A DNA stretch of 64,000 nt from the NCBI GenBank assembly GCA_038998335.1, contig JAVZHQ010000001.1, positions 384,001 through 448,000 of the forward strand, read 5' to 3'. The position numbers were made by a program, and so were the translations under genes. Origin of the DNA: Candidatus Aenigmatarchaeota archaeon. Its GTDB lineage: Archaea > Aenigmatarchaeota > Aenigmatarchaeia > CG10238-14 > SCSR01. Below, one piece after another: positions 21,024 to 31,958 of this stretch. Every line of letters begins with the position of its first letter. Within the stretch, counting starts at the first letter, position 1. The notes under the pieces are model-generated. The model made no database searches. It was not told the origin of the DNA and saw only the letters and a list, made by a program, of their open reading frames with translations.

Positions 21024-21132
21024 GCTGGGATAGTTCAGCGGTTAGAACGCGGCGCTCATAAGCTTTATGAGCTTTGAAAAAATGATGAAAGATGAAACGC
21101 CGAAGTCCCGGGTTCAAATCCCGGTCCCAGCA
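21024..21132 (+). tRNA. tRNA-Met(CAT), elongator type, with 36-nt anticodon-loop intron
   Basis: Acceptor GCTGGGA/TCCCAGC, anticodon stem CGGCG/CGCCG, CTCATAA loop after removing 36 nt (21061-21096, or 21062-21097 by BHB geometry). Confidence 0.9.
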
Positions 21133-23646: not shown

Positions 23647-25193
<1,547 letters not shown>

Positions 25194-27566: not shown

Positions 27567-27638
27567 GGGCCGGTAGATCAACGGTAGATCGCCTCGCTTG
27601 CAACGAGGAGGTTCGGGGTTCGAATCCCCGCCGGTCCA
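27567..27638 (+). tRNA. tRNA-Ala(TGC)
   Basis: GGGCCGG/CCGGTCC acceptor with G3:U70; CCTCG-CTTGCAA-CGAGG. Confidence 0.95.
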
Positions 27639-27712
27639 TACTCTTAATAAAAGTTATCGAGAAAATCCAAATGAGTTTAAAAATTTTTATTTTTAGTTGT
27701 AAATTAAATCAA

Positions 27713-28273
27713 ATGGAAGTCCCATCTTGGTATGTAATAACGGGAGAACCTTCTTCTGGTAAGACAACAATTTTAAAAAAATTGGAAGAATTAGGATACT
27801 TTGTTGTTCCAGAGACTGCAAGAATTTTGATAGATAAATATATCAAAAAAAGGTATACCAGCACAAAAATTAAGAAAAAACGAAAGTCGATTTCAAAAAC
27901 AAGTTTTAAAGTTGAAATTAAAAATTGAAGAAACTGTTCCTAAGGATAGAATTGTATTTTTTGACAGAGGTATTCCAGACAGTATAGCCTATTTCAAAAT
28001 TTGTGGGCTAGATACCAAGGAATTAGAAAAATATCAAGAAATAGATATAAAAAAATATTCTTTTTAGAGCAGCTACAATTCCAGCGAGATTATGTAAGAA
28101 TAGAAAATGAAGAAACTGTTAAAAAGTTAAATCAATTACTTCTGGAGACTTACAAAAATTTAGGCTACAACATTGTTCATATCCCAGTTTCTTCGGTTGA
28201 AAAAAGAGTAAGACTTATTTTTATTCAATTTATGATTTATTGGCACGGTATTGAAAAAATGTACAACTACTAA
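27713..28273 (+). pseudogene. AAA_28/NadR-like P-loop kinase with two compensating frameshifts
   Basis: ITGEPSSGKTT...VPETAR; frame shifts at A7 (27845-27851) into FFDRGIPDSIAY, and returns at A5 (28027-28031). Confidence 0.7.
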
Positions 28274-28409: not shown

Positions 28410-28467
28410 AGCTATGAGTTTGCCCTTCTAACTGATAAAAGATGAAGAAATGGGCACCTAACGAGCT
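28410..28467 (+). ncRNA. Box C/D sRNA 1 in 23S leader (D guide to U2552 equivalent)
   Basis: C ATGAGTT, D' CTGA, C' ATGAAGA, D ACGA; TGGGCACCT is antisense to 31499-31507. Confidence 0.8.
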
Positions 28468-28514
28468 TCCTTTGATGCGAATCCTTATTTTGATAATAAG
28501 GGTTTAAGAGTTGA

Positions 28515-28576
28515 GGTTGATGACTTGACTGACAGCGTCTGATAAAAGATGAAGAACGAACTGTCTTTATGAAACC
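28515..28576 (+). ncRNA. Box C/D sRNA 2 in 23S leader (guides to 2504 and 2600 equivalents)
   Basis: GGTT/AACC stem, C ATGACTT, D' CTGA, C' ATGAAGA, D ATGA; guides antisense to 31451-31459 and 31548-31557. Confidence 0.85.
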
Positions 28577-30618
28577 AGAAGATGAAACTACCATAGGATA
28601 AGCTGGTCAAGAGGTCCTGGCAACAGTAGCCCACTTGGTGGATGGCTCGGCTTGGTTAGCCGAAGAAGGCCGTGCCAAGCTGCGATAAGCCTGGGTTATC
28701 CGCATGGAGGAGCTGACCCCAGGATTGCCGAATGGGATTCCTAGCCCGTTAAGGGCTATTTCGGAAGAAAAGGGAACGCGCCGAAGTGAAGCATCTTAGT
28801 AGGCGCAGGAAAAGAAATCAAACGAGATTCGGTGAGTAGGGGCGACCGAAAGCCGAACAGGACAAACCGAACTTTCTTTCGAAGAGGAAGAAAGGATGTG
28901 GAGTTACAGGACTTGGGCCTTTCCTAGCTTGCTAACCTGAAGTGAGCTGGAAAGCTCCACCATAGAGGGTGATAGTCCCGTAGGGGAAGGCAAGAAGGAA
29001 AATGCCAAGTCTCCTGAGTACCATTCCTTGGATATGGAGTGGGAATTTGGGTGGCATTAACATCCAATCCTAAATACTAACCAAGTCCGATAGCGGACTA
29101 GTATCGTGAGAGAAAGCTGAAAAGTACCGCGAAAGCGGGGTGAAAAGAGCCTGAAACCAAGTTGGGCATAGTCAGCTAGGGCATGAAAGGTGCTACTCCG
29201 AAGGAAATTCTCGCAAGAGAAGAGTACGAGGAGTAGCTTACAGTGTCCTAGCATCCGTTCTGAAAAACGGGGCAGGGAGTTTGCTCGAGTAGTGAGGTTA
29301 AGGGGTTTAAACCTCGAAGCCAAAGCGAAAGCGACAAGCCCGTAGTCTCGCAAGAGACGTGGGGCGGGGTGTGAAAGCGCCTGAAATTACTCGAGCAAGA
29401 CCCGAAGCCGGTCGATCTAATCCTGGGCAGGATGAAGTTCCTCGAAAGAGGAATGGAGGTCCGAACCGGTGCTGAGACCCAATCGCTCGGTTGACCCAGG
29501 ATTAGGGGTGAAAAGCCAATCGAGACCGGTGATAGCTGGTTCCTCCCGAAATGAGCGTCAGCTCAGCCTGGTTGGAGGTAAGCAGTAGGGTAAAGAGACT
29601 GATTGGACGGTCAAGGTGCGAAAGCATCAGCCGTCCTGTCAAACTCTGAATCTACTGCTGCCTGAGAAGACCGGAGTGAGGGTACTGGGTTAAGCTCGGT
29701 ACCCAAAAGGGGAACAACCCAACCTGGGGTTAAGATCCCTAAATGCCGGCTAAACGAAGAAGGGAGTCCAAATCCTTAGACAGCGGGGCTGTAGGCTTAG
29801 AAGCAGCCATCAGTTAAAAAGTGCGTAACAGCTTACCCGCCGAGGGTTTGGGCCCTGAAAATGGAAGGGACTAAGCCGGCTGTCGATACCCCAGACCTGC
29901 GAAAGCAGGGGGTAGGGAGGCGTTCTGCATGGGTAGAAGCTTGTTCGTGAGAACAAGTGGACCGTGCAGAATTGAAGATCCTGCCATGAGTAGCAGCATA
30001 GCTGGGTGAAAATCCCAGCCGCCTGAACCCTCAGGGTTTGCCAGCAATGTTCGTCAGCTGGCAGTTAGTCGATCCTAAGGGCGCTCTTAACCGAAGCGCT
30101 CAAAAGGGAAATCGGTTAATATTCCGATACCATGGAGGTACGTGCGGCAACGCAAGCTAGCTTTCCGACGTTTCGGGATAGGCCGACGCAAGTTAACTGC
30201 CGAAGCCTGCAGAGTCTCGTAACGAGGAGAAGCAGGTGAAAGCAGGAATAGCTCCGCGTATGCGGAGTTCGGCCGATTCCTGGAACCCGTGAAAAGGGAA
30301 GCTAGAAGGATCCTCCATGATCGTACCAAGAACCGACACAGGTAGGGTCGCTGAGAAGGCGAAGGCGTGTTGGGAGAACCCAATCCAGGGAAATCGGCAA
30401 ATTGGCCCCGTATCTTCGGTAGAAGGGGTGCCTGTTCTCTCGAAAGGGAGAACAGGTCGCAGTGACAAGGGGGAAGCGACTGTTTAACAAAAACACAGGA
30501 GACTGCTAGTCCGAAAGGATTTGTACAGTCTCTGAGGTCTGCCCAGTGCCGGTGTGTGAAACCCGGTTCCAACCGGGAGAAGCCCCGGCAAACGGCGGCG
30601 GTAACTCTGACCGTCGTA

Positions 30619-30664
30619 ACTCAGGGCGGTCATCTGATTTGATGATACGCCGCCTGGGCGACAT
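30619..30664 (+). ncRNA. 46-nt BHB intron in 23S (E. coli 1927/1928) with D'/C' motif and cis guide
   Basis: GTCG-TA|A-CTCAGG...CCTGGG-CGAC-AT|A; CTGA-T-TTGATGA inside. Confidence 0.9.
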
Positions 30665-30792
30665 AAGTAGCGTAATCCCTTGCCGTTTAATTGACGGCCC
30701 GTTCAACGGCTTAACGACTTCCCCACTGTCCTGGGTTGGGACCCAGCGAAAATGCTGTTCTGGTGAATAGGCCAGAGACCTCCGGTGGGAAA

Positions 30793-30823
<31 letters not shown>

Positions 30824-30976
30824 GCGTTGCTGTAAGGTTGAAATTGCATAGAGTAGCTGGGACTCGCTATTAGGCGCAGGCTTCGGCCGAGGCTGAGAGG
30901 AAAGTGTAACACCAGCCCTTTTCAACCTTACGGCTTACCCGTAAGGGGACAGCGTCAGATGGGCAGTTCGGCTGGG

Positions 30977-31060
30977 AGTTTAGGAGCTAGAATGAAGAGT
31001 CCCTTAAGTTATGAAAAAATGATTAAGGGCATACGGTCTGAACAGCTCCTAAACCAGCAA
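30977..31060 (+). ncRNA. 84-nt BHB intron in the 23S P-loop (2252/2253) containing a complete box C/D sRNA
   Basis: GCTG-GG|A-GTTTAGGAGCT...AGCTCCTAAAC-CAGC-AA|G; splicing restores GGCTGGGGCGG. Confidence 0.93.
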
Positions 31061-31115
31061 GCGGTACGCCCTTGGTAAGAGATCAAGGGCGCCCAAAGCT
31101 CAGCTCATCCGGGTC

Positions 31116-31212
31116 ATGTCAGAAGTTGAAGCTATGATTACACTGCTCCAGAATGATTTAAAGATGAGTATGGAGGTAGCTTATGAGCTTTCATCAACTT
31201 CTGACACCCGAA
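31116..31212 (+). ncRNA. 97-nt BHB intron in 23S (about 2306/2307) containing a complete box C/D sRNA
   Basis: CGGG-TC|A-TGTCAGAAGTTGA...TCAACTTCTGACA-CCCG-AA|A; splicing restores CGGGTCAGAAATCC. Confidence 0.92.
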
Positions 31213-31384
31213 AGAAATCCGGAGTAGAGTGTAAGCGCAAAAGCTGGGTTGATTGGATCCCGCAAAGCGAGGGATCCAAGGGCGAAAGCCTGGGCTAGCG
31301 ATACATCGGTTCGCCTTAATGGCGGCCGGTGGTATCAGAAAAGCTACCTCGGGGATAATGGGCCCGTGGCCGGTGAAAGCCCAC

Positions 31385-31427
31385 AGCTCAGGGGTTTTCA
31401 TCCCACTCGATAGCGACGAGCGGGTAA
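31385..31427 (+). ncRNA. 43-nt BHB intron in 23S (about 2477/2478)
   Basis: GCCC-AC|A-GCTC...GAGC-GGGT-AA|A; splicing restores AGCCCACATTGACCC. Confidence 0.88.
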
Positions 31428-31526
31428 ATTGACCCGGCGCGTTGGTGCGTCGCTGTCGGCTCCCCCCCTCCTGGCCGTGCAGTAGCGGCCAAGGGTACAG
31501 GTGCCCACTGGTTAAAGGGGGACGTT

Positions 31527-31560
<34 letters not shown>

Positions 31561-31958
31561 GCTATCTACCGGAGGTGCTGGCTGTCTGACCGGAAGGATG
31601 GGTGAGTACGAAAGGAACACCCATCCGTGGCCTCTGGTCTACCGGTTGTTCATCGCACAGCCGGGCAGCTAAGCCATAGCGGATAAGTCCTGAAGGCATC
31701 TAAGGACGAAACCGCCCGGGAAAATAGGCAGCCAATTGCTCTGCTATTCCGCAAGGAACGGTAGAGCAACGAGGGCTCTCCTAGACGAGGAGGTTGATAG
31801 GAAGGGGGTGTACGCGCCAAGCTTTCGAGCGAGGCGTTCAGCCCGCCTTTCCTAATCGCCCGAGGTTGCCAGGACTTGATAAGCAGCTTATCCTATGGTA
31901 GTTTCAAAAGTTTTTTTCTAAAATAAAAAAGTTAAACTTTTTTTTCTTAATTTAATTT

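Follow-up and report, generated by a model that had tools for sequence, protein, structure and literature searches.

An intron in the 23S rRNA P-loop of an Aenigmatarchaeota archaeon probably acts in trans as a conserved box C/D guide for 16S rRNA

Modification guides that reside in introns are characteristic of eukaryotes; in archaea, to our knowledge, all described cases are tRNA introns whose guides act on the very tRNA that carries them. The papers cited below by PMC number were available in part, and statements drawn from them refer to those parts. The pre-tRNA-Trp intron of Pyrococcus (sR50) and of Haloferax volcanii encodes a C/D sRNA (Clouet d'Orval 2001; Singh 2004; both in PMC7994747). 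There, the bulge-helix-bulge (BHB) intron is itself the guide, is released by EndA, acts as an RNP and targets Cm34 and Um39 in the same tRNA that hosts it (PMC7994747). The hosts of eukaryotic intronic C/D snoRNAs are often genes for ribosomal or translation proteins, and the snoRNAs act in trans on rRNA (PMC7994747, PMC3511168); they reside in spliceosomal introns of mRNAs and are released by exonucleolytic trimming. Free-standing double guides with distant 16S targets are known from the DPANN archaeon Nanoarchaeum equitans, whose sR15 and sR17 are independent genes with targets on opposite strands of one helix (PMC4644070). Finally, archaeal rRNA introns spliced through a BHB, found in Thermoproteales and others, occupy the most conserved rRNA sites; they carry nothing or a homing endonuclease, and none is described as a modification guide in the available parts of PMC4496867 and PMC6125680. 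Our literature search, which was thin in subscription journals, found no published case of a C/D sRNA in an rRNA intron, and the accessible text of PMC7994747, PMC4644070 and PMC6125680 does not mention one.

The locus described here is an 84-nt BHB intron in the P-loop of a 23S rRNA gene, and we regard it as a real and new form of intron-encoded guide RNA. Like the tRNA-Trp intron, it is a BHB intron that is itself a C/D guide; unlike it, it is hosted by 23S rRNA and both of its targets lie in the separately encoded 16S rRNA, and not in the host RNA as for a cis-type guide. As with the eukaryotic intronic snoRNAs, guide output would be tied to a translation-related host gene that has to be transcribed and spliced, but its host is an rRNA, and its maturation would involve a tRNA-type endonuclease, RtcB and a likely circle. 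It resembles sR15 and sR17 (PMC4644070) in its core of about 55 nt, its 12-nt guides and its two distant 16S targets. In contrast to these, it is intronic, and its targets in h27 and h34, 291 nt apart, are not partners of one helix, unlike those of typical double guides. With the known archaeal rRNA introns it has in common BHB splicing and a position in one of the most conserved rRNA sites. The 23S gene thus appears to be the host gene of a small-subunit modification guide. A P-site rRNA intron would then act in trans as a guide for the other subunit, as part of a wider habit of this genome. Such an arrangement offers a simple prokaryotic model of how guide RNAs come to inhabit host-gene introns, gives a selective reason for keeping introns at essential rRNA sites in tiny genomes, and suggests that the synthesis of large subunits and the modification of small ones are inherently coupled in stoichiometry.

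The genome comprises 1.01 Mb in nine contigs (33% G+C, about 90% completeness), and its sequence is present in hot-spring metagenome runs. The window, that is the whole stretch of 64,000 nucleotides that was analysed, contains the following stable RNA genes.

23647-25193: archaeal 16S rRNA gene
27567-27638: tRNA-Ala
28614-31875: 23S rRNA gene

The 16S and 23S genes are separated by 3.4 kb. The part of this spacer between the 16S gene and tRNA-Ala contains, on the opposite strand, three long ORFs of 151, 268 and 244 aa without a match in Pfam. This spacing and these ORFs make separate transcription of the two rRNA genes plausible. Between tRNA-Ala and the 23S gene, two further ORFs on the plus strand (window 27671-27928 and 28001-28273) have matches to Pfam AAA_28, in its N-terminal and its C-terminal part; they are possibly one gene, split or frameshifted.

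Comparison of the 23S gene with the Rfam archaeal LSU model revealed 86 bases where the model has 2, within the P-loop, between GGCUGGG and GGUACGCC. A MAFFT alignment to E. coli K-12 rrlH gave the insertion point as G2252|G2253, in agreement with the position that a reading of the sequence alone (hereafter the sequence-only reading) had assigned to the intron. The elements of the intron and of its splicing motif are as follows.

30977-31060, plus strand: 84-nt BHB intron between the equivalents of E. coli G2252 and G2253 of 23S rRNA (Rfam LSU insert, E. coli alignment and RNA-contig junction)
30968-30970, plus strand: 5' strand UCG of the outer exon helix, pairing with 31062-31064
30971-30974, plus strand: exon strand GCUG of the central 4-bp helix, pairing with CAGC at 31055-31058; kept in 7/7 variants
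30975-30977, plus strand: 5' three-base bulge GG|A, cut at 30976|30977 (BHB geometry; exon 1 ends at 30976 in RNA contigs)
30978-30988, plus strand: 5' strand of the intron helix, pairing with 31044-31054
31044-31054, plus strand: 3' strand of the intron helix
31055-31058, plus strand: intron strand CAGC of the central 4-bp helix
31059-31061, plus strand: 3' three-base bulge AA|G, cut at 31060|31061 (BHB geometry; in RNA contigs 31061 is the first base of exon 2 and directly follows the end of exon 1)

The motif is thus a canonical BHB, made of two 3-nt bulges around a 4-bp helix, flanked by a 3-bp exon helix and an 11-bp intron helix. Cleavage after the second base of each bulge yields the 84-nt intron and the mature P-loop, and removal of the intron produces GGCUGGGGCGGUA, which matches the Rfam LSU consensus and E. 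coli 2246-2258. The 126-nt region folds with -41 kcal/mol (z = -2.97), and only one of 200 shuffled sequences was equally stable.

Assembled contigs from the metagenome runs show both the intact gene and the spliced product. The DNA-run contigs X1 and X2 cross the 84-nt intron unbroken. In the RNA-run contigs X10 and X13, position 31061 is preceded by GG(G)CAGTTCGGCTGGG, 15-16 bases that are identical to 30961/2-30976; the X13 contig with this junction has 66 nt in total, of which 51 nt are exon 2, with no mismatch. Conversely, the RNA contigs that end at 30976 mostly continue with GCGG, and one class of X13 contigs ending there runs on into unrelated sequence. The exons are therefore joined in RNA, 30976 directly to 31061, as seen in assembled metatranscriptome contigs of one study (two RNA runs) with overhangs of 15-16 nt. 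The RNA-run contigs X10 and X13 have zero cover at 30992-31039; RNAs that are small or circular escape assembled contigs and standard libraries alike.

Between the two strands of the intron helix lies a complete box C/D layout. The consensus sequences are RUGAUGA for box C and CUGA for box D. The elements and their 16S targets are listed below.

30992-30998, plus strand: box C AUGAAGA, 6/7 to RUGAUGA; AUGUAGA and AUGAGGA in relatives
30999-31010, plus strand: D' guide GTCCCTTAAGTT, 12 nt, antisense to 16S 24571-24581
31011-31014, plus strand: box D' AUGA, invariant in 7 variants
31015-31018, plus strand: D'-C' loop AAAA, 4 nt, varying among AAAA, AAAG, GGA and UUUUUU
31019-31025, plus strand: box C' AUGAUUA, invariant in 7 variants
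31026-31037, plus strand: D guide AGGGCATACGGT, 12 nt, antisense to 16S 24863-24872, with the invariant core GGGCAUACG
31038-31041, plus strand: box D CUGA (4/4); CUAA or CCGA in some relatives
24571-24581, plus strand: target site for the D' guide in 16S rRNA, equivalent to E. coli 908-918 in h27 and the central pseudoknot (3' strand); 2'-O-methylation predicted at U24575
24863-24872, plus strand: target site for the D guide in 16S rRNA, equivalent to E. coli 1200-1209 in h34; 2'-O-methylation predicted at U24866

Every element of the box C/D anatomy, from C at 30992 to D at 31041, was recovered where the sequence-only reading had described it. The RNA has the features of archaeal C/D sRNAs: terminal C and D boxes beside the 11-bp helix, a short loop between the internal boxes D' and C', 12-nt spacers, and guides with antisense matches of at least about 9 bp and a Watson-Crick fifth base. 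At the consensus G-C position of the inner motif, U6 of C' and A1 of D' are able to pair. The antisense matches to 16S proposed before also held, with 11 contiguous base pairs for the D' guide and 10 for the D guide. In both duplexes the fifth guide base forms an A:U pair, opposite U24575 and U24866, and the MAFFT alignment to E. coli K-12 rrsH bore out the assignment of these two nucleotides to the equivalents of C912 and C1203. Position 912 belongs to the 3' strand of h27, beside the pseudoknot strand 916-918, and the D' guide duplex spans 916-918. Helix 27 is named as a 16S methylation hotspot in archaea in the accessible parts of PMC4644070 and PMC7994747, and conserved Gm1428 and Gm1490 are reported in the h34 of eukaryotes (PMC2794176, in part).

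The host RNA itself offers no comparable target: in 23S rRNA, neither guide has an antisense run of at least 8 nt or a match of 10/12, the best remaining matches being 7 Watson-Crick plus 2 GU pairs and 7 Watson-Crick pairs. A search of the intron (30977-31060) against Rfam returned no C/D family at E up to 1. This weighs little because archaeal C/D sRNA families are lineage-specific. The two guides are also partly complementary to each other: CCCTTAA (31001-31007) in the D' guide matches TTAAGGG (31023-31029), where C' ends and the D guide begins, and CCCUUAA and UUAAGGG are paired in the minimum-energy fold. This self-pairing may represent an alternative conformer of the naked RNA, and given this pairing part of the guide conservation could be structural.

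The significance of the guide matches was then estimated against controls. An antisense run of at least 11 nt covering the fifth base was reached for guide 1 by 14 of 5000 shuffled guides and by 6 of 4940 random genomic 12-mers; for guide 2, a run of at least 10 nt covering the fifth base was reached by 42/5000 shuffles and 40/4940 genomic 12-mers. The joint chance of both matches is about 1e-5. The box layout by itself is far less telling. The strict double-C/D pattern occurs three times in the real genome versus twice in the reversed genome and 2.2 times on average (range 0-6) in 30 shuffles, and this lack of enrichment in a genome of 33% G+C led us to reject the box layout alone as proof. 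All three strict matches are, however, found within BHB introns, namely two 23S introns and a 59-nt tRNA intron (C1:281225-281370). Single C-guide-D units with a 9-nt rRNA match are at noise level, with 25 in the real genome versus 27 in the reversed one. A 25-nt match in the same genome (G000:C5) lies within a coding region and was discarded as chance.

Conservation was analysed in relatives. The surrounding 361 bases were searched in 40 relatives, and the P-loop could be judged in 19: the intron is present in two (G001, of the same genus, 97%; G015, from a different genus, 86%), the exons abut in 15, G025 contains a different intron, of 662 nt, and the remaining one, G038, is ambiguous. Further copies came from pattern scans (G095 and G097), from four species-representative contigs and from seven metagenome contigs. 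The 16 copies, one of which is interrupted by a contig end, fall into seven distinct variants, and the insertion site in the P-loop is the same for every copy. The columns that are invariant across these variants were distributed as follows.

guide 1: 11/12
box D': 4/4
box C': 7/7
guide 2: 9/12
box C: 5/7
box D: 2/4
loop: differs in sequence and length

The 18 pairs of the BHB and the intron helix are formed in 125 of 125 cells of the seven variants. In the outer exon helix, 3/3 pairs are kept in 7/7 variants and none varies; in the intron helix, 5 of the 11 pairs show compensatory changes on both sides with 100% pairing. The covariation score was reached by none of 500 shuffles, and controls with slid strands were only 22-49% paired. 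The guides and the inner boxes thus remained almost invariant while the loop and the helix pairs varied, which supports the reading of this RNA as a guide. Weaker terminal boxes occur in relatives (C AUGUAGA in G001; D CUAA in G015, L051 and L054; D CCGA in G097), and this drift indicates that the terminal kink-turn is less constrained than the inner one.

On the target side, 24571-24581 is identical in the 16S rRNA of G001, G097, G095 and G023, and 24863-24872 in that of G001, G097, G095, G023, G012 and G021; the 16S rRNA of G021 has A at E. coli position 915. Guide-target covariation was considered and rejected: the lineage-specific G at 915 pairs with a guide C, yet G023, which lacks the intron, shares this G. 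Since both targets are unchanged in G023 and no homologue of the intron was detected there, the family can do without these modifications.

The sequence-only reading had raised the question of a free-standing homologous sRNA in relatives. No such homologue of the P-loop-intron sRNA was found in 118 genomes of the order, many of them without assembled rRNA; the h34 guide was found in tRNA introns instead. The pattern of guide 1 with its flanking boxes matched only intron copies, in 4 of the 118 genomes, with 0 control matches. The guide-2 pattern matched in 7/118 (five intron copies and two tRNA-intron copies), with 2 control matches. A covariance model of the intron gave five strong matches of 92-106 bits, all of them intron copies; the next best score was 22.7 bits, and by eye the weak matches were noise or unrelated tRNA introns. 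The two tRNA introns with the h34 guide core (53-58 nt) belong to G025 and G034 of the sister family. Their elements follow in the order C AUGAGGA, UGGGCAUACGGU or UGGGCAUACGAU, D' at exactly 12 nt, C', a second guide and CUGA, and here too the guides are mutually complementary; the 16S genes of both genomes are absent from their assemblies. To judge from these copies, the h34 guide has been kept in BHB introns of two kinds, those of rRNA and those of tRNA.

The genome encodes the proteins expected to process and use such an RNA: L7Ae (PF01248, 109 bits), Nop5 (PF01798, 230 bits) next to the fibrillarin gene (PF01269, 282 bits), one EndA (PF01974, 95 bits, in a 193-aa frame) and RtcB (PF01139, 547 bits). 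In the proposed mechanism, the 23S rRNA would be transcribed with the 84-nt intron in its P-loop, and exon and intron sequences would fold into the BHB. EndA would cut at 30976|30977 and 31060|31061, and RtcB would join the exons, restoring CUGGG-GCGG, and probably close the excised intron into a circle. The released intron would be a double-guide box C/D sRNA, with L7Ae bound at the C/D kink-turn beside the intron helix and at the C'/D' kink-loop, on which Nop5 and fibrillarin would assemble. The 12-nt guides would then anneal in trans to 16S rRNA at E. coli positions 908-918 and 1200-1209, and fibrillarin would 2'-O-methylate the nucleotides opposite the fifth guide base, the equivalents of U912 and U1203. 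In this scheme we infer RNP assembly, methylation, a stable or circular intron, and a guide supply that depends solely on 23S transcription and splicing.

The rRNA genes of this genome contain three more BHB introns.

31116-31212, plus strand: second 23S intron, 97 nt, with a full C/D layout (C 31134-40, D' 31153-56, C' 31164-70, D 31183-86)
31385-31427, plus strand: third 23S mini-intron, 43 nt, no C/D boxes, near E. coli 2477/2478; an RNA contig joins 31384 to 31428
24382-24460, plus strand: 16S intron, 79 nt, at the equivalents of E. coli 801|802, with the D'-loop-C' module CUGAUAAAAGAUGAAGA and no clear C and D boxes

The assignment of the P-loop intron as a conserved box C/D guide acting in trans on U912 and U1203 of 16S rRNA is the one we consider likely. 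Against it stand a box C that departs from the consensus, the drift of the terminal boxes, the complementarity between guide 1 and UUAAGGG, the dispensability of the intron in relatives and the distance between two targets that are not helix partners. That it is an ordinary ORF-less rRNA intron, in which C/D-like boxes and 16S matches arose by chance in an AT-rich genome, is very improbable. The strict box pattern is indeed expected about twice per genome and single units with a 9-nt rRNA match are equally common in the reversed genome (27 versus 25), but such coincidence would have to account for the joint match probability of about 1e-5, for guides that are conserved where loop and helix vary, and for the confinement of all three full-pattern matches to introns. 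The C/D module could instead serve the intron itself, either through L7Ae stabilising the BHB or by an action within pre-23S rRNA, the 16S complementarity being secondary. The kink-turn does abut the 11-bp intron helix, and D'-loop-C' modules without full guides occur in the 16S intron and in several tRNA introns. This would leave unexplained why two antisense runs lie exactly upstream of D' and D, why the guides are invariant and why the h34 guide is reused in tRNA introns; moreover, the third 23S intron (43 nt) splices without C/D boxes. We regard such a role as quite improbable.

Rather unlikely, in our estimate, is that the intron, as a C/D RNP or at least bound by L7Ae, functions mainly as an RNA chaperone or in timing and not in methylation, or that only its invariant C'/D' side is catalytic. 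Pairing to 908-918 would then stop both h27 and the 3' strand of the pseudoknot from closing while the subunit assembles, in line with a D' duplex that covers E. coli 916-918 and with the conservation pattern, in which C'/D' and the guides are most conserved and the terminal C and D boxes drift. Chaperoning by archaeal double guides with distant targets has been proposed by Dennis et al. (PMC4644070, in part). However, both guides have a Watson-Crick fifth base, their duplexes of 10-11 bp fit catalysis, and the fibrillarin gene is present.

The second 23S intron has the junction CCGGGUC|AGAAAUCC, deduced from the loose ends of RNA contigs. Its D guide forms 10 bp with 23S rRNA around 31345 (equivalent of E. 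coli U2438), and its D' guide can form 8 Watson-Crick and 2 GU pairs with CUGGG|GCGGU of the spliced P-loop, which places the fifth base opposite 30975 (G2251). As this D' target spans the P-loop splice junction, pairing would be possible only after removal of the first intron. The match is weak in the genome studied (its score was reached by 287 of 2000 shuffles), and the P-loop site ranks first for 4 of 5 guide variants of homologues; we take the pairing of this guide with the spliced P-loop as a lead only. Homologues of the second-intron sRNA exist as free-standing genes in G022 (L027) and G030 (L028). It follows that guide RNAs change location in this order, between free-standing genes, tRNA introns and rRNA introns.

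A broader and doubtful reading is that the rRNA precursors host guide RNAs which impose an order across the subunits, large-subunit maturation gating small-subunit folding. The intron freed by splicing of pre-23S rRNA would sequester the 3' strand of the pseudoknot and h27 and then methylate U912 and U1203, while removal of the P-loop intron would create the continuous target for the D' guide of the neighbouring intron, with its fifth base opposite the equivalent of G2251. Sequestration of 16S 908-918 recalls the U3 snoRNA.

Several other inserts were observed near the sites discussed here. In the 23S rRNA of G025, the 662-nt BHB-type intron (L010 1688-2349) lies at C2254|G2255, displaced by 2 nt relative to the sRNA intron, and contains a 209-aa double-LAGLIDADG ORF. 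The P-loop is, on these sequences, a recurrent intron site in this order. The 16S rRNA genes of G097, G095 and G021 (L064, L065, L068, L103) carry, at about E. coli 1197/1198, an intron of some 88 nt. It lies 1-2 bases 5' of the h34 guide target and has a D'-loop-C'-like module. A further insert in the 16S gene of G095:C29 follows directly after AACTTAAGGGAA (E. coli 919/920), at the 3' edge of the other target.

C/D-like elements are also found elsewhere in the genome. The 5' leader of the 23S gene contains two C/D-like units (window 28411-28470 and 28520-28572), and the D guide of unit B forms 10 Watson-Crick pairs and 1 GU pair with 23S rRNA around 31551. The genome has three exact copies of the 17-mer CTGATAAAAGATGAAGA, two of them in this leader (28432-48 and 28539-55) and one in the 16S intron (24403-19). 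The tRNA genes whose introns bear C/D elements lie at window 21024-21132 and at G000:C1:281225-281370, 371540-371646, 504696-504833, 556995-557113, 569471-569588, 663523-663634 and 785187-785307. Two of these introns (59 and 53 nt) are full double-guide sRNAs and six (31-46 nt) consist of a guide and a D'-loop-C' module; in the tRNA-Trp intron the fifth base is opposite C34, as in the known tRNA-Trp case.

We also noted an 18-nt insert with two in-frame TAA codons in rtcB (G000:C1:120751-122073; L039 ~1574-1591). It interrupts the conserved motif PDMHFGY|GFPIGG, and folds as a canonical mini BHB; we consider it a candidate intron of the tRNA type, carried by the mRNA of the very ligase that acts in splicing. 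A brief literature search on that point found no paper on an intron in rtcB mRNA. At the same site, G004, G012, G009 and G030 have inserts of 18, 29, 20 and 26 nt, three of which are not multiples of 3, with matching stems. Including the genome studied, the insert is present in 5 of 12 rtcB loci and absent from the other 7.
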